Positions 9,306-18,488 of a stretch of DNA of 18,488 bases are shown here, piece after piece. A program made the translations under genes and the position numbers. The notes beneath the pieces are model-generated. The model did no database searches. It was not told the origin of the DNA and saw nothing but the letters and a program-made list of their open reading frames with translations. Source of the stretch: a virus. The stretch lies in UHGV virus genome UHGV-1333851; one strand, given 5' to 3'. Position 1 is the stretch's first letter, and each line of letters opens with the position of its first letter.

Positions 9306-12293
9306 ATGAGCTTAAGCGATCAGGTGGTAATGGCCACCAGCATAGAAACGCTGATCGAGCTGCTAAAGAACCTGCCCGATTATGGGCGGGTTTCGTATGT
9401 GGTGACAGCGAAGGGAGACGAGGTAAAAACAGCGTTTGATATCGTCGATGCCTCAGCTCTTTTGGTATCCAATACTCTGGATGGGAAAATTAATCCTGAC
9501 TATCCCCAGGAACTTCAACCGCGCGACCGGACCCGCGCATCCAGCCTTCTTCAGGTTAACCAGATATCCAAAGATTTGCGGCCTGCTCAGCTTACCGACT
9601 CCGGTTTATCCAGCCATGGCGCGCCGATAATTGGTGAGGACAATGCCGTTGAGTCAGGTAATGGGCGGACCATGGGGATCATTAAAGCCTATCAGGACGG
9701 TAATGCGGATCGGTATCGGGAGTACCTGATTGAACATGCGACCGAATTCGGCATACGGCCTGAAAAGGTTGAATCAATGACGGCTCCGGTACTGGTGCGC
9801 CGCCGGTTAACGAAGGTTGACCGTGTTCAGTTTGCCAAGGACTCAAATATTTCTGATCTCCAGGAAATGGCAGCCAGTGAAAAGGCTTTTGTTGATGCCG
9901 ACAGCATAACTCCGGCGATGATGGCGCTTTTTAACCCGTCAGAAAGCGGAGATCTGCTTAGCCGCAGTAATGACGCGTTTATTCGCGGATTTATGACGCA
10001 AGTTGGTGCCACACAGGCGGCTGGCCTTGTAACTGAAGATGGGCGACCAACACGGCAACTTGTAGACCGTATACAAAACGCGATCTTTGCCAAGGCATAT
10101 AAGGATGCGCGCCTGGTAAGGATGGTTGCAGAAGAACCTGATCCGGATATGCGTAATGTTCTGACGGCGCTTAATGCGGCAGCCAATGATTTTGTCCAGA
10201 TGCAGGCTTTATCAGGAGAAGCGCACAAGCAGGCTGTGACAACTATTGTTGATGGCATTGAGACAGCGGATAGCCTCGATAAAAAGGCGCTGGCAGCATT
10301 GAAAGATGCGGTAGACCTGGTAAGGCAATCGAAGGAGTCAGGCCAGCATATTACCGATGTTATTGCTCAGGGGGATATGTTCAGCGAAACGGCCCCGGAA
10401 GTGAAAGCACTCGCGTTGTTCATCGTCGCGAATAACCGTAGCGCGAAGCGTATGGCCACCGCCTTTAAGTTGATGGCTCAACGTATCAATGATGAGTTAC
10501 AGCACCAGGGCCAGGCGCTGGGGGATATGTTTGGCGGCGGCGATGTGTCGTTACAGGATATCCTTCGCCAGGTGTCTCAGGAACTGGAAAACGAAGGCAT
10601 GCAAGGGATATCCGGCGGTCTTTTCGAGTCCGTTTCCGGCGGTAGTTACAACGGTGTTGCTCCGTATACCAGTTTGCTATTACATCGGGCATCCGGCATC
10701 AAAGACATTATTCATCTGATCAGGCTGCTTTCCCGCACAGATCCCCAGGATGAACAGCTTGTACAAGTGCTTGCGCATTTTGTTCGAATGCCTGTTGCCG
10801 ACGTGAAAAAATGGTGCCGATTATTCGGTATCAGCAATTCGTTACTTCGCGGCTTGTTAAATCACGCATCCTCCCTTGGGCGCGATGGCTTTGACGAGAT
10901 AGCGCAGGCGATAAAAAACGGAGATATGCCACCAGCTATTGACTGGTTTTCCATTCGCCCAACCAGGGTGAAAGCATTCCTTAGCGCGGCGCATTCGGCA
11001 TCACCATTGGCAGAAATGGTTCAGAGGTTGTCGCTCATATTCACAGACCATAGCGCGTTGGGTGATCTGACTCTGGACGAGATGAAAGAAGCCTCCATTC
11101 AGTGGGCCGATCAACAAAATGAGGTTAACTCAGACTTCTTGCCAGCATTCAGGAAGGCCGTTAGTAAAGTGGATGATGCCCGTGGAATTCTGAAGGCATT
11201 TAAGGCATTGCAAAGTCGGGTTAATAAACATGTCGGTGATATCGATGGGGTAACGGCGGAAGGCAGGGATATCCTTAAAGAGCACGGCATAACGCCAGAG
11301 TTTATTGATGAGATCAGGACGGATATGCAGCGTGAGGTCGTATCGTCCCTGCAAATCGTAGCCAGAGCGTTGGCGGATGCTAATCCGAAGAGTGCGGCCA
11401 TTGTTAACCGGGTTATTGGTGATATTGAAGCATCGGAGGGCATGGGGGCGCTGAAACTCTTCCTTTCGCGAGCGTTTAATCCTAACGGCAATATTCTCCC
11501 CAGCATTATTGGTGAGGCTAAAAAGCATGTCAGTGAAGAAGAACTTGAGCAGCTTAACCAGCTACTCAATCGATTTTCATATATCCCGCAGAAACGCTGG
11601 CAAATGAATCAGCGTAGTATGGATTCGGTCTACGAGAAAGTGTTATCTGCCATGAACAGTGCGATCGCCAACTCATCCGTATCAGAAGAAAAAGCTCTTG
11701 AGTGGGCCGACTCTTTTATCACGGAAGAAGTGGAAGAAGCCCGCGCTGGACAGAATGGTGGAATAGACCTGCGCAAGGAACTTGCTGATATTTATCGCCT
11801 GACCGGCGGGAAAATATCAACCTTATCAAGGGTAATTCACCACAAGGGTAGGGCGTATGCAAATCTTAATGGTGTTGTTGCTGTCGATTTGCACGATGAA
11901 AATGCAAATGCACTGTGGCACGAGCTGGGTCATCATCTTGAGTACAGTAACCCGGGTTTGTTAGAGAAAGCCAGGTCATTCCTGAAGGCCAATGTTGAAG
12001 GGGATAAGCCATCTTTCGTTAATATTGGTGGGCGTGGCAAGCCTGAATGGTGCTTCAGATCTCGATTGAGTGATATTTATATGGCGAAGGTATACCCGCC
12101 TGTCTCAGTGAGTAATTCTGGTAAATTTCGACACAAATCTCCGACAATTTCCAAAACGTCAGCAACGGAAGTATTCTCTATGGCTCTTCAGTTGTATCAT
12201 GACAAAGAGGCCGCTGCCGCATCACTGATGAATGGTGACGGATTGCTGGAACTGTTATTAGGTGTGGCAAAGGAGCTAAATAATGCAGATTAA
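9306..12293 (+). CDS. ddrB: DdrB-like large virion-associated multidomain protein with a zincin HExxH motif
   Basis: 995 aa. HExxH motif near the C-terminus (ALWHELGHHLEYSNPG). N-terminal region has a possible ParB/Srx-like signature (ESGNGRTMG), unverified. Last large gene of the Dar-like operon. Confidence 0.5.
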   Translation: MSLSDQVVMATSIETLIELLKNLPDYGRVSYVVTAKGDEVKTAFDIVDASALLVSNTLDGKINPDYPQELQPRDRTRASSLLQVNQISKDLRPAQLTDSGLSSHGAPIIGEDNAVESGNGRTMGIIKAYQDGNADRYREYLIEHATEFGIRPEKVESMTAPVLVRRRLTKVDRVQFAKDSNISDLQEMAASEKAFVDADSITPAMMALFNPSESGDLLSRSNDAFIRGFMTQVGATQAAGLVTEDGRPTRQLVDRIQNAIFAKAYKDARLVRMVAEEPDPDMRNVLTALNAAANDFVQMQALSGEAHKQAVTTIVDGIETADSLDKKALAALKDAVDLVRQSKESGQHITDVIAQGDMFSETAPEVKALALFIVANNRSAKRMATAFKLMAQRINDELQHQGQALGDMFGGGDVSLQDILRQVSQELENEGMQGISGGLFESVSGGSYNGVAPYTSLLLHRASGIKDIIHLIRLLSRTDPQDEQLVQVLAHFVRMPVADVKKWCRLFGISNSLLRGLLNHASSLGRDGFDEIAQAIKNGDMPPAIDWFSIRPTRVKAFLSAAHSASPLAEMVQRLSLIFTDHSALGDLTLDEMKEASIQWADQQNEVNSDFLPAFRKAVSKVDDARGILKAFKALQSRVNKHVGDIDGVTAEGRDILKEHGITPEFIDEIRTDMQREVVSSLQIVARALADANPKSAAIVNRVIGDIEASEGMGALKLFLSRAFNPNGNILPSIIGEAKKHVSEEELEQLNQLLNRFSYIPQKRWQMNQRSMDSVYEKVLSAMNSAIANSSVSEEKALEWADSFITEEVEEARAGQNGGIDLRKELADIYRLTGGKISTLSRVIHHKGRAYANLNGVVAVDLHDENANALWHELGHHLEYSNPGLLEKARSFLKANVEGDKPSFVNIGGRGKPEWCFRSRLSDIYMAKVYPPVSVSNSGKFRHKSPTISKTSATEVFSMALQLYHDKEAAAASLMNGDGLLELLLGVAKELNNAD

Positions 12294-12594
12294 AATCGCA
12301 GCGCCATTAGGCGGAGATGCCATTATCGAATTTGATGATAATGAAGAAGTTTCCGGGCGTTTAAGCATTATCTCCGGTGACATTACCGAGGACATGATCG
12401 CTGAAGCCATAGCTGGGGCAAATCCCAATAGCTATATGGGATTCGTTAACACCCTTGATGCTCCCGCAAGTGATGTTCTCCGAACGCTGCATCTTTACGC
12501 TGGCTGGTTTGTTGATTGGCCAGTAGTAGATGGTGGCGATGAGGACGACGACGACGATGATTTTGGTGATCATGTAGACCAGATCGTATATTGA
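12283..12594 (+). CDS. Small highly acidic protein with a poly-Asp tract
   Basis: 103 aa. Start overlaps the ddrB-like stop (ATGCAGATTAA). C-terminal DGGDEDDDDDDFGDHVDQIVY. Followed directly by a strong terminator. Confidence 0.5.
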   Translation: MQIKIAAPLGGDAIIEFDDNEEVSGRLSIISGDITEDMIAEAIAGANPNSYMGFVNTLDAPASDVLRTLHLYAGWFVDWPVVDGGDEDDDDDDFGDHVDQIVY

Positions 12595-12596
12595 AG

Positions 12597-12628
12597 AAAT
12601 CCCGCCAATCGGCGGGATTTTTTTTAAT
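12597..12628. terminator. Rho-independent terminator, bidirectional between convergent operons
   Basis: AAATCCCGCC-AATC-GGCGGGATTT, a perfect 10-bp stem, followed by a T run. Sits between the plus-strand stop at 12594 and the minus-strand stop at 12624. Confidence 0.75.
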
Positions 12629-13412
12629 CGCTTTCCACTTCTTCCGTGGTGTTTTCTTGCAGTTCTGTTAATGCAGCACGACATAGGTTCCGGGCATTGG
12701 CTATAGCCACACTTTTGACTTCATCCGTCATCGTGCAGGTAATGTACTGATCGAGTTCTTCAGCGCGGATGATGCTTTTGCCAATCAGAAACTGTATTTG
12801 CCAGAGCAGATCGGCATCCATAATCAGAATTTCTGCCGGGCCTTCAGGGCCAGCCGGGAAGGAAACATAAGACTGTTTGCCCAGGCCGATAACTCGACAA
12901 CTTGCTTCAAGAATTGCGCGCTTGAGGTCTGACTTTGTAACGGAAACAGGTTGGTTTTCACCAGTGATTATGCCGTTGACATGGAAGTGGAAGGGCATGT
13001 AGCTTGAAATACGCTCTACTTTCCACACGCCAGCAAGCGATCCTTCATGCAGCACAATGGGGGTAACCGCGAGTTTCATCTCACCATATAACTGCTGGCA
13101 GATAGCTGGATTGCTGAATACATCCAAAGGTTCACACTCAAACAGCGGCGCAATCTGCATGAGGTCCATCATGGTCATACCAGGGGTACGAGCAGTAATG
13201 AATCTGCGCATGCCAGTATCCATTGTGCGCCAGATAGCTACACCATGCTTTTTGCTCACTTCTTCAGTAAAGCCAAGGTGGCACATGATGGTTTTTTCGA
13301 TAGCCAGATCAGAGATCGAAACCTTTTCGCCAGGCACACCATCATTATTGATGGTCACTTCGACACTCTGACCATTACGCAGGCGGTATTGAATTGCTTT
13401 AGTATTTTCCAC
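12624..13412 (-). CDS. Hypothetical protein, function unknown
   Basis: 262 aa. GTG start at 13412 with GGAGTG 8 nt upstream; start lies 7 nt after the stop of the preceding gene. No motif I can assign. Confidence 0.55.
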   Translation of the reverse strand: MENTKAIQYRLRNGQSVEVTINNDGVPGEKVSISDLAIEKTIMCHLGFTEEVSKKHGVAIWRTMDTGMRRFITARTPGMTMMDLMQIAPLFECEPLDVFSNPAICQQLYGEMKLAVTPIVLHEGSLAGVWKVERISSYMPFHFHVNGIITGENQPVSVTKSDLKRAILEASCRVIGLGKQSYVSFPAGPEGPAEILIMDADLLWQIQFLIGKSIIRAEELDQYITCTMTDEVKSVAIANARNLCRAALTELQENTTEEVESD

Positions 13413-13418
13413 GTTAAA

Positions 13419-14096
13419 TCACTCCACTACAAACCAGTCACATGCCAGTAAGTCGCCTACAGAAGGAACCCACGGAACAACTACACCTTGTGCATTTTTT
13501 AAGGCGAAATAAGCACCATACGGAACGAGGTCGCCGGGGAAATATCCCTTAATGGCTTCCATTCGTGCCGGGTACTGTCCTTCAGGAACCAGCCAGCAGA
13601 ATTGGTTTTCGCCGTTCCACCCGCGTCGAGCAACTTTCTTGCCATCCTTCAGCCACATCAGCGCGTCAGAAAAGTCGGCTGCTTCAAGGTCGATTTCTTC
13701 TTGTAGAGTAGCGATACCGCCAGCAGAAATAGTTACGTCCCTGGCTGTAATGAATGTCACCCCATTGTGACCTTCAATGCTGAGCAATGCCCCATTTTCG
13801 AAGAAGTCGTTAGTCCGACTAAAGCCTTCTTCAAATGTTTTTTCTGGTGAATAGGACAGAGATCCGTCCTCATAAGCGACCAGATATCCGCCAATTTCTG
13901 GTCGGTGTTTTTGCAAAAACATTTTATCAACATGGACTTTTACCCCTTCTGGCTCAACGACTTCGATGTTGCAAAGAAGGACCACATCCATTAGGGCGAT
14001 AATTTCGATATCTTTGATTTTTGAGGCACGAACTGTTTTATGGCTTTTGTATTTTGGAAGTGCCGTCAAAAGCTCTTTCGTTGTCATGTTATTCAT
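13419..14096 (-). CDS. Two-domain protein with a C-terminal DUF2829 (Tad2-like) domain
   Basis: Start placed at the ATG at 14096 (AGAGGAAA 5 nt upstream), not the ORF-track GTG at 14264, whose extension is R/K-rich and lacks an RBS. The C-terminal ~85 aa (FSDALMWLKDGKKVARRGWNGENQFCWLVP…PWVPSVGDLLACDWFVVE) match the DUF2829 signature as I remember it. Confidence 0.6.
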   Translation of the reverse strand: MNNMTTKELLTALPKYKSHKTVRASKIKDIEIIALMDVVLLCNIEVVEPEGVKVHVDKMFLQKHRPEIGGYLVAYEDGSLSYSPEKTFEEGFSRTNDFFENGALLSIEGHNGVTFITARDVTISAGGIATLQEEIDLEAADFSDALMWLKDGKKVARRGWNGENQFCWLVPEGQYPARMEAIKGYFPGDLVPYGAYFALKNAQGVVVPWVPSVGDLLACDWFVVE

Positions 14097-14293
14097 AGTC
14101 TTTCCTCTGCTTAAAACCTGATGTATTGCGCCTTCAGGTGGGGCAGGATTGTTTTCCCACCAGCGAAAGCAATATCTCGGGGTGTTCTTTTCGTGAAAAG
14201 CGCGTGCCATTGCCAACTTTGGCGTTTGTTTGCGAGTTCGTGCTTTTGTCGGCGTCTGGACCACCGCTTTTCTTTCAGTCGTTTTTTACACAT

Positions 14294-14782
14294 TCAAAAC
14301 GGAATATCGTCGTCAAAGTCCATTGGAGGCTCGTTATTGGCGTTGCTCTGAGGTTTACCGCCACCACTGTATTGCTGGTGGTTTTGAGGTTGGTTTGATT
14401 GCCCCCAGCCATTTGAGGACTGTGAATCGTCACGGCGAGCGCCGATCATTTGCATGGTGCCGCCCTGGCTGACGATAATTTCCGTCGTGTAACGTTCTAC
14501 ACCGGCGTCATCTGTCCACTTACGGGTTTTAAGTTTCCCTTCGATGTATACCTGAGAACCTTTTCGTAAATACTCACTCGCAATTTCAGCAAGTTTTCCG
14601 AACAAAACGACTTTATGCCATTCTGTTTGCTCTTTCTGTTGGCCCGTTTGCTTGTCGCGCCATGATTCATTCGTTGCGATGCTGAGTCTTCCGACCGCGC
14701 CGCCATTTGGTATATACCTGATCTCCGGGTCTTGCCCCAAGGTACCAATCAGTATGACTTTGTTTACACCGCGTTGTGCCAC
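14294..14782 (-). CDS. ssb: Single-stranded DNA-binding protein
   Basis: 162 aa. Near-identical in organisation to E. coli SSB: OB-fold ([23 protein letters not shown]…[29 protein letters not shown]), Gly/Gln-rich linker and acidic tip [14 protein letters not shown] start with AGGTAAG upstream. Confidence 0.97.
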
Positions 14783-14844
14783 TTATCTTACCTAATAAAA
14801 TAAATTAATTAGAGCAATAATGTATATCTTTGAAACGTAGCTAA

Positions 14845-14866
14845 CAAGTGATTTGCATTATCCTGT
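14845..14866 (+). promoter_or_regulatory. Candidate late-type promoter upstream of lyz
   Basis: AGTGATTTGCATTATCCT: a TTTGCAT element abutting TATCCT (TANNNT), about 85 nt upstream of the lyz ATG. Confidence 0.25.
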
Positions 14867-14951
14867 GCCTTCTAAAGGGATCGAGTCAGTCGGTATTGGC
14901 TGTGAATGGGTGTTTGTCCTGGAGCGTAAAAAATTCGCTTATGAGGTCTTT

Positions 14952-15509
14952 ATGAAGGGAAAAACAGCCGCAGGAGGCGGTGCAATTTGCGCTATCGCGG
15001 TGATGATTACCATCGTGATGGGTAATGGCAATGTGCGAACCAACCAGGCGGGGCTTGAGCTTATCGGAAACGCTGAAGGTTGCCGACGTGATCCATACAA
15101 GTGCCCGGCGGGTGTATGGACTGACGGGATTGGTAATACACACGGGGTAACGCCTGGCGTGCGAAAAACCGACCAGCAAATCGCCGCTGATTGGGAAAAG
15201 AATATCCTGATCGCTGAACGCTGTATTAACCAGCACTTCCGGGGCAAAGACATGCCCGATAATGCCTTCAGCGCAATGACAAGCGCGGCATTCAATATGG
15301 GATGCAATAGTTTACGGACCTACTACAGCAAAGCGCGAGGCATGCGAGTCGAAACGTCCATCCATAAGTGGGCGCAGAAAGGGGAATGGGTGAATATGTG
15401 TAACCATCTCCCTGATTTTGTGAACAGTAACGGCGTCCCCCTGCCCGGGTTAAAGATTCGCCGTGAAGAAGAACGCCAGCTTTGCCTGACGGGGCTTGTC
15501 AATGAATAA
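14952..15509 (+). CDS. lyz: SAR-type endolysin (T4-lysozyme family, P1 Lyz / P21 R-like)
   Basis: Start at the ATG at 14952 (GAGG upstream). N-terminal signal-anchor-release-like segment (AAGGGAICAIAVMITIVMG) followed by the lysozyme catalytic region (GLELIGNAEGCRRDPYKCPAGVWTDGIGNTHG). Confidence 0.9.
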   Translation: MKGKTAAGGGAICAIAVMITIVMGNGNVRTNQAGLELIGNAEGCRRDPYKCPAGVWTDGIGNTHGVTPGVRKTDQQIAADWEKNILIAERCINQHFRGKDMPDNAFSAMTSAAFNMGCNSLRTYYSKARGMRVETSIHKWAQKGEWVNMCNHLPDFVNSNGVPLPGLKIRREEERQLCLTGLVNE

Positions 15510-15756
15510 ACTCCGGCAGCTCCGCCGACTTTCGACAATGAAGTTATCGCTGGCGGCGATAGTTTTTGACTCGATTTTCATGGCGGTATATGTGCTCAAT
15601 GAGACGTGGCCACTGGAACCGCTATTATATGCCGGGCTTCGGCTGTGCCTGACATTTTTGAGCATGGCTGCAAGATTGATGCAGCAGAAAGAAACCGCTT
15701 CAGATTGCCCACGTCGCGCGGTGCGCAAATATATGGCACGCAGACGAAGGCGATAA
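15502..15756 (+). CDS. Small membrane protein overlapping the endolysin 3' end (lysis accessory, holin/antiholin-like)
   Basis: ATG at 15502 overlaps the lyz stop (ATGAATAA). Two hydrophobic segments (LSLAAIVFDSIFMAVYVL, LLYAGLRLCLTFLSMAARL) and a basic C-terminus (RRRRR). Confidence 0.4.
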   Translation: MNKLRQLRRLSTMKLSLAAIVFDSIFMAVYVLNETWPLEPLLYAGLRLCLTFLSMAARLMQQKETASDCPRRAVRKYMARRRRR

Positions 15757-15767
15757 TAGTTAACGAT

Positions 15768-15797
15768 AACCCCGGCAGCCGCCGGGGTTATTTTTGG
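15768..15797. terminator. Rho-independent terminator
   Basis: AACCCCGGC-AGCC-GCCGGGGTT stem-loop followed by ATTTTTGG; lies between the convergent gene ends at 15756 and 15801. Confidence 0.65.
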
Positions 15798-15800
15798 TGG

Positions 15801-18488
<2,688 letters not shown>

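Follow-up and report, generated by a model that had tools for sequence, protein, structure and literature searches.

The window analysed here, an 18,488-nucleotide (nt) stretch of the virus genome UHGV-1333851, carries on its minus strand, at positions 13419-14096, a gene that quite probably encodes a cytoplasmic Tad2 sponge for Thoeris signals, made early and accompanied by an accessory β-barrel. The coding sequence is a single uninterrupted open reading frame (ORF) of 225 codons plus the stop (translation MNNMTTKE...DWFVVE*); the plus strand of the same interval is riddled with stops and non-coding. Three segments can be recognised in the 225-amino-acid (aa) fusion protein: an N-terminal Dec-like β-barrel of the oligonucleotide/oligosaccharide-binding (OB) type (residues ~5-96; 13809-14084, minus strand), a β-rich linker possibly related to the C-terminal spike of Dec (residues 97-137; 13686-13808, minus strand) and a Tad2-like (DUF2829) sponge domain (residues 138-225; 13422-13685, minus strand). 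The largest cluster of homologs is likewise 225 aa long and named "DUF2829 domain-containing protein" (NCBI among the sources), and the E. coli RefSeq records bear the same name.

The sponge part is ordinary, and since Tad2 has already been reported in P1-like phage-plasmids (DefenseFinder survey, 2025 preprint), the sponge assignment is not new in kind. The interest lies in the barrel. Apparently undescribed are the combination of a Dec-like barrel with a possibly spike-like linker, the link between this barrel, the N-terminal domain of RyR-Tad and four other sponge families, and the domain-wise mosaicism of the gene. No paper that brings together sponge, OB-fold, Thoeris and phage came up in a literature search.

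The Tad2-like domain and its likely signal

An earlier reading of the sequence (the original prediction) had assigned the C-terminal ~85 residues, ALMWLKDGKKVARRGWNG...PWVPSVGDLLACDWFVV, to DUF2829. These residues are present, and the hidden Markov model search that had been proposed as a check gave a strong match: the Pfam model PF11195 ("Tad2-like") aligned with residues 141-224 over model positions 2-73 of 73 (E=1.6e-22; 80.3 bits, the curated cut-off being 25 bits). The NCBIfam and PADLOC models gave zero matches to the protein. In a sequence search of the Protein Data Bank (PDB), the best match was ModTad2 in complex with histidine-ADP-ribose (His-ADPR; 9EIB, E=6e-20) together with its apo form, followed by HgmTad2/AcrIIA7, SPO1 Tad2 and SptTad2. 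Comparison with Tad2 structures, also proposed earlier, revealed the Tad2 fold, in which an N-terminal helix leads into an antiparallel sheet whose loops contain short helices. The ADP-ribose core of the ligand is held by W25, N26, W73, S76 and D79 in SPO1 Tad2, and by W21, N22, G23, W87, S90 and D93 in HgmTad2 (Li et al.). The corresponding pocket residues of the window protein (W160, N161, G162, W209, S212 and D215) are all conserved by alignment. The C-terminal domain is thus supported as a Tad2-type sponge domain, predicted to sequester Thoeris signals.

Judging by the closest relatives that have been tested, the target would be Thoeris signals, chiefly the type II signal His-ADPR, and not those of CBASS or type III CRISPR. 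The tested protein closest to the window domain is Tad2_68 (68% identity over 82 residues), from a screen of 84 proteins (Hadary et al., 2025). In Table S2 of that study all three type II Thoeris columns give Tad2_68 as positive, and it was negative on type IV Thoeris, both CBASS systems and both Pycsar systems (Hadary et al., 2025). By our reading of the entry "n, N/A, y", a pattern shared with the positive controls, it was plaque-positive on type I Thoeris too. In ModTad2, a second pocket binds the cyclic mononucleotides cUMP and cCMP. The best guess for the ligand of the window protein is His-ADPR, possibly together with 3' cyclic ADP-ribose (3'cADPR), the type I signal. The idea of an immune-signal sponge put forward in the original prediction is therefore supported as far as the conserved pocket core and Thoeris are concerned; the CBASS and type III CRISPR signals that it also named are not indicated by the tested relatives.

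Alleles whose Tad2 domains are otherwise near-identical vary in the insertion between β2 and β3 (residues ~169-195, about 13512-13592; alignment A1). At least four forms occur: PEGQYPARMEAIKGYFPGDLVPYG, a longer PDKQGASRLTPIKHA..NGELEINFDSPLAPYG, a short LAGSVNLHGIQVPYG and PASDDSPYG. As this element builds the second (cyclic nucleotide) pocket in other Tad2 proteins, the alleles may differ in specificity.

The N-terminal barrel and its sponge partners

The Tad2 domain had been described as following a ~140-aa N-terminal domain of unknown function. A further region does precede it, but it resolves into a barrel of ~90 aa and a linker of ~40 aa and is not wholly unknown. By sequence comparison and structure prediction, this part is an OB-type β-barrel homologous to Dec of phage L, continued by a linker that may be related to the Dec spike. 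In the monomer model the barrel reached predicted local distance difference test (pLDDT) values of 83-94, and the linker contained four short predicted strands. Foldseek matched the barrel to Dec (6E3C; E=1.5e-3, prob 1.0, 26% identity), a profile of 23 N-terminal domains found Dec among the PDB sequences (E=2.8e-5), and hhalign with the full-length alignment placed query residues 5-124 on Dec residues 2-117 (95.5%, E=1.5e-8). For the spike comparison, the alignment stops at residue 117 of the 134 in Dec, its per-column confidence is low, and the linker has a pLDDT below 50. A weak Pfam match to the OB domain of elongation factor P (E=0.17), covering the linker and the start of Tad2, was sub-threshold and was disregarded. 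The identification of the barrel as Lockin was also rejected, given that Lockin is a hexameric cog reported absent from INPHARED and the barrel occurs in 35 phage records.

Barrel relatives are numerous. A profile of the domain, for which no Pfam model was found, retrieved 5064 cluster representatives at E<=1e-3, and the best 150 relatives were mostly stand-alone proteins of 80-130 aa. The family is marked by the motifs Y-K-x-H-K-x-V-x-A ... G-G-Y-L-V ... S-Y-S-P-x-x-x-F-E-x-G, of which the window barrel retains H19, K20, G69, G70, Y71 and S83-P84, with two conservative departures at S79 and F92. The search was topped by giant repeat proteins of 1781-4559 aa (P0121-P0123, P0127, P0142, P0198 and P0215), whose repeat unit GGTIVIAADGSYSYTPAPNFNG mimics the GGYLV..DG..SYSP..F motif; they were treated as spurious matches, not relatives, and form a trap for anyone building a hidden Markov model of the domain.

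The partners of the barrel were surveyed with Pfam in the 136 best-scoring representatives of up to 500 aa, a sample that may over-represent relatives of the query. PF21825 was found in 16 proteins, PF11195 (Tad2) in 12, PF13876 in four and PF24729 (the Acb2/Tad1 hairpin) in two. PF21825 is the Sequestin sponge and PF13876 the Acb4 sponge, and fusions of one sponge to another are frequent (Tal et al.). The barrel came first in every architecture scanned, as it does in the window protein, where it is N-terminal to Tad2. These architectures comprised barrel with Sequestin and Acb4, barrel with Acb4, two barrels with Acb4, barrel with Tad2 and Sequestin, barrel with the Acb2/Tad1 hairpin, and barrel with Sequestin (P0148, P0165, P0263, P0154, P0126, P0143, P0226 and P0258). 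In addition, close relatives of the window protein carry a C-terminal Sequestin (P0061, P0062, P0073 and P0099).

A further partner emerged from RyR-Tad, the gp68 protein of Pectobacterium phage vB_PatP_CB1 (2026 preprint), whose N-terminal domain is homologous to the barrel (hhalign 92.4%, E=5e-7). On its own, that domain did not appear active against type I Thoeris, and the C-terminal domain was sufficient; in the crystal it formed a strand-swapped dimer, reported for gp68 only (2026 preprint). Judged from sequence, at least five sponge families unrelated to one another carry the barrel: Tad2, Sequestin, Acb4, the Acb2/Tad1 hairpin and RyR-Tad. Sequestin itself was discovered by examining Pfam families fused to known sponges (Tal et al.). 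Because that search was limited to Pfam families, a barrel lacking a Pfam model could not surface in it, and the same reasoning applies to the barrel too. The wider point is that one small Pfam-less domain sits on five sponge families; it is a concrete and cheap experimental target.

Gene model, operon and distribution

The original prediction had placed the gene next to ssb in a P1-like phage, and both statements proved correct. Identity between the window and P1-like phages is 96-98%, with Salmonella phage SJ46 as the best match, and ssb (14294-14782; annotated in SJ46 and P1) lies directly upstream on the same strand, the minus strand, which had been left unstated. Over 2.6 kb around the gene, identity is 98.3% to SJ46 and ~97% to P1 where alignable. 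In SJ46, a 281-aa ORF beginning at a GTG (14264 in the window) is annotated (J46_0048), and this gene model was rejected. Several observations led to the longer form being judged unreal. The 56 extra codons stand in P1 in front of a different gene body, that of isaA, and homology to P1 runs from ssb through the leader and ends just past the ATG at 14096. Read in the GTG frame, each of the four leader differences from P1 is non-synonymous; the six in ssb are all synonymous. A Shine-Dalgarno-like GAGG, read directly from the sequence, lies 7 nt 5' of the ATG (14104-14107, minus strand), and the main homolog cluster has the 225-aa length. The extension is thus probably untranslated, and 14097-14293 (minus strand) probably a non-coding leader, common to P1, where it precedes isaA. 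In the P1 annotation this 197-nt stretch (P1 locus L002:4297-4467) is given as the first 56 codons of IsaA; the start codons of both P1 IsaA and SJ46 J46_0048 look mis-assigned.

Upstream of ssb, at 14802-14818 on the minus strand, lies a 17-nt C1 repressor operator (P1 Ossb/Op21, ATTGCTCTAATTAATTT), which has the same sequence as the operator in P1 (AF234172); its surroundings also match P1 exactly. According to the P1 annotation, ssb is directly downstream of the C1 operator and promoters. No minus-strand terminator-like site was found between ssb and the sponge gene, and no promoter-like site within the operon; terminator-like sites were no commoner than in shuffled sequence. We infer that ssb, the sponge gene and the isaA-like gene form a C1-repressed operon, made on induction or infection. 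Since the sponge gene lies behind a C1 operator annotated upstream of ssb in P1, it is probably expressed early.

The isaA-like gene (12624-13412, minus strand; 262 aa; phrog_2326) lies 6 nt 3' of the stop codon of the sponge gene and is a constant neighbour of the DUF2829 gene, after ssb in P1-like elements and after dut, near cre, in D6-like plasmids. As the pair occupies a different genome position in the D6-like plasmids, the two genes move as a unit. The IsaA-like protein has only 24 homolog clusters. Its AlphaFold2 model (pLDDT 79.6, predicted template modelling score 0.80) gave no credible fold match to any solved structure (best Foldseek match at E=0.048, prob 0.09), and there was no PDB sequence match and zero NCBIfam and PADLOC matches. 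The gene may be a second anti-defence gene. The content of the locus is variable, with isaA-IS1-isaB in P1, nmpC-odaA in P7 and sponge-isaA in the window; the genes carried by P7 mark the site downstream of ssb as a variable spot.

Farther out, the plus strand carries ddrB (9306-12293) and hxr (12283-12594), identified from the SJ46 and P1 annotation. The plus-strand ORFs from 5978 to ddrB have the sizes and order of the anti-restriction genes of the P1 darA operon, ddrB and hxr being the only two compared with annotation; if this match holds, known anti-restriction genes form a block ~1.1 kb away from the sponge gene. On the other side, lyz is annotated from ~14853 on the plus strand. Its ORF (14853-15509) would give 218 aa from a TTG, compared with 185 aa for P1 Lyz (coding sequence of 558 nt), and the true start is probably farther downstream.

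The difference from P1 is a clean indel, with 6 bp there in place of 684 bp in the window. A search of 5426 complete E. coli genomes found the gene in 213. Of its 220 matching places, 213 were plasmid-borne, the plasmid records listed being mostly 89-112 kb. According to the DefenseFinder survey, 56% of P1 phage-plasmids and 93% of D6 phage-plasmids carry Tad2 (2025 preprint). Phage D6 has a 146-aa form (L004:3048-3488) in which residues 1-20, the linker and Tad2 are retained and the barrel core is deleted. Another lineage (P0056) encodes a 241-aa dUTPase-Tad2 fusion joined at the linker, which apparently arose by deletion between adjoining dut and DUF2829 genes. In the P1-like element RCS47 (FO818745.1, carrying blaSHV), the homolog is annotated as "part 1" and "part 2" at 15495-15896 and 25579-28136, ~10 kb apart. 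The split gene adjoins an insertion sequence (IS)-family transposase, and P1 has IS1 at this locus; the RCS47 sponge gene has apparently been disrupted by an insertion.

The alleles are mosaic, with breakpoints at domain boundaries (window 13419-14096 compared with L010:1501-2178, L011:1501-2163 and L012:1361-2011). The barrel, linker and Tad2 segments are each near-identical in one allele pair and strongly diverged in another, with synonymous divergence (dS) of 0.5-0.8. Compared with one D6-type allele, the barrel and linker have a dS of 0.5-0.6 and the Tad2 segment has no differences in 88 codons; another allele pair shows the reverse pattern, and the linker recombines separately from the segments that flank it. 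The ratio of non-synonymous to synonymous divergence (dN/dS) is ~0.27 for the Tad2 segment and ~0.45-0.5 for the barrel, indicating that both are under selection.

Proposed function, alternatives and known systems

In the proposed mechanism, the sponge gene would be read from the C1-controlled ssb promoters, and the protein would be made on prophage induction or on infection of a C1-free cell. By analogy with solved homologs, the Tad2 domain would form a tetramer with pockets at the subunit interfaces and sequester the ADP-ribose-derived signals produced by the Toll/interleukin-1 receptor (TIR) proteins of Thoeris, such that the Thoeris effector would never be switched on. His-ADPR would be the most likely ligand, and 3'cADPR a plausible second. 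The Dec-like barrel and linker would constitute an accessory module that phages place ahead of many kinds of sponge. This module is probably dispensable for ligand binding, and the likeliest contribution of the barrel would be oligomerisation or valency, or some second activity. The accessory role is suggested by the fusion of the barrel to several sponges, by the sufficiency of RyR-Tad's C-terminal domain, as well as by the D6 form.

Some observations pull the other way. Four positions at which SPO1 Tad2 touches adenine or ordered waters are changed in the window protein (T65 to N201, D67 to Q203, H71 to V207 and T78 to G214), and with these peripheral contacts different the ligand cannot be read from the sequence. 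Dec forms a trimer on capsids and Tad2 a tetramer, and a trimerising N-terminal module would give an assembly unlike that of known sponges. The timing of expression rests on the P1 annotation. Finally, Tad2 homologs with a 6E3C-like or PF21825 domain were dropped from the 84-protein screen (Hadary et al., 2025), which leaves multi-domain Tad2 proteins of this type outside the largest functional screen and implies that such fusions had already been noticed by its authors. An exact-string search of the supplementary files of that study found neither the motifs of the window protein nor "PF21825".

The first alternative is that the protein is a dual inhibitor, in which the barrel is itself anti-defence, as a second sponge or as a binder of a defence protein, and two blocks are imposed at once. 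Sponge-sponge fusions such as Acb4-Tad2 and Tad2-Sequestin are common, and it was the same logic, applied to Pfam families only, that uncovered Sequestin. The barrel's five unrelated sponge partners fit this explanation, as does its mostly stand-alone occurrence at 80-130 aa, the usual size of a sponge. Furthermore, H, K, several Y, D, E and S are among the residues that it keeps near-invariant, and its dN/dS of ~0.5 places it under selection. However, the homologous domain of RyR-Tad was inactive against type I Thoeris, the only system reported, phage D6 keeps the gene with the barrel core deleted, and the barrel family does not feature in what Tal et al. reported from their structure-guided sponge pipeline. 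A dual inhibitor is considered rather unlikely. A broader proposal, that the barrel is an anti-immunity module in its own right, either a new family of sponges or inhibitors or a tether that hides capsid surfaces from sensors or places sponges at the source of the signal, is speculative and a little less probable still. The tether would fit the relationship of the barrel to a capsid-binding protein and the triggering of Thoeris TIR sensors by capsid proteins. If true, the fusion of the barrel to five unrelated sponge families would represent a general design principle of phage counter-defence.

A second alternative is that residues 1-137 bind the P1 capsid as a trimer in the manner of Dec, which would make the protein a decoration protein or a capsid-tethered sponge. 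The homology to Dec extends from the OB domain into the spike region (query 5-124 on Dec 2-117), and the linker folds poorly as a monomer; the C-termini of Dec form a spike in the trimer assembled on capsids. Major capsid proteins also switch on some Thoeris TIR proteins, which would provide a rationale for a capsid-bound sponge or mask. Against this, the gene lies with ssb behind a C1-controlled promoter and not in a late structural operon, and homologs in other phages lie among small accessory and regulatory genes. Dec is divergent and lacks the H-K and E-D-G-Y motifs of the family, a sponge on the exterior of the virion would be out of reach of intracellular signals, and the homologous RyR-Tad domain is a swapped dimer, not a trimer. 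A capsid-associated role thus seems very unlikely.

Type II CRISPR-Cas is not normally present in E. coli or Salmonella, the hosts of P1-like elements, which counts against the DUF2829 domain acting as a Cas9 inhibitor like AcrIIA7. Although HgmTad2 was deposited as AcrIIA7 and is homologous at E around 1e-10, this explanation is scarcely credible, because no reproducible Cas9 inhibition by HgmTad2 or other Tad2 homologs was found, HgmTad2 was shown to be a sponge (Li et al.), and the window domain is far closer to ModTad2 and Tad2_68.

An early Tad2 sponge with an accessory barrel would have practical consequences. Clinical E. coli, Shigella and Salmonella commonly carry P1-like phage-plasmids, and P1 itself is a standard tool in bacterial genetics. 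As laboratory P1 is without the sponge gene, results obtained with P1 may understate the evasion of Thoeris by its wild relatives.

Among known systems, the founding member SPO1 Tad2 (8SME-8SMG) and HgmTad2/AcrIIA7 (8KBI-8KBM) have the fold and the core of the ADP-ribose pocket in common with the window protein, at an identity to its domain of only 31-39%, depending on the method. R31 of HgmTad2, which binds the cyclic dinucleotide cGG, is V170 in the window protein, and the long insertion of HgmTad2 is missing, so cyclic dinucleotide binding would not be expected. ModTad2 (from a Myroides odoratus prophage; 9EIB/8V3E) and Tad2_68 are single-domain proteins of 87-88 aa, whereas the window protein has 137 more residues at its N-terminus.

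Among solved structures, only Dec (6E3C) has detectable sequence homology to the barrel (24-26% identity), and it shares with the N-terminal part of the window protein the layout of a barrel followed by a β-rich tail. However, Dec is a late structural protein without a sponge domain, encoded by a gene that adjoins the terminase genes of phage L. The window gene lies downstream of ssb behind a C1 operator, in what would be an early operon, and not with late structural genes. The conserved H-K and E-D-G-Y motifs of the barrel family are without counterpart in Dec, which marks Dec as a divergent member.

In RyR-Tad, the N-terminal domain occupies the same position as the window barrel, ahead of the sponge domain, but is shorter (~70 aa) and is followed, on its C-terminal side, by an unrelated RyR-repeat sponge that is all-helical. 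The main text of the RyR-Tad preprint draws no link to Dec or to other sponge families. Finally, Acb4-Tad2 (Pasteurella phage Pm86), Tad2-Sequestin and Acb4-Sequestin (Ab09 gp59) likewise join a sponge to a second small phage domain in one polypeptide. In these proteins both halves are proven sponges, whereas in the window protein the partner of the sponge is a barrel of putative function.

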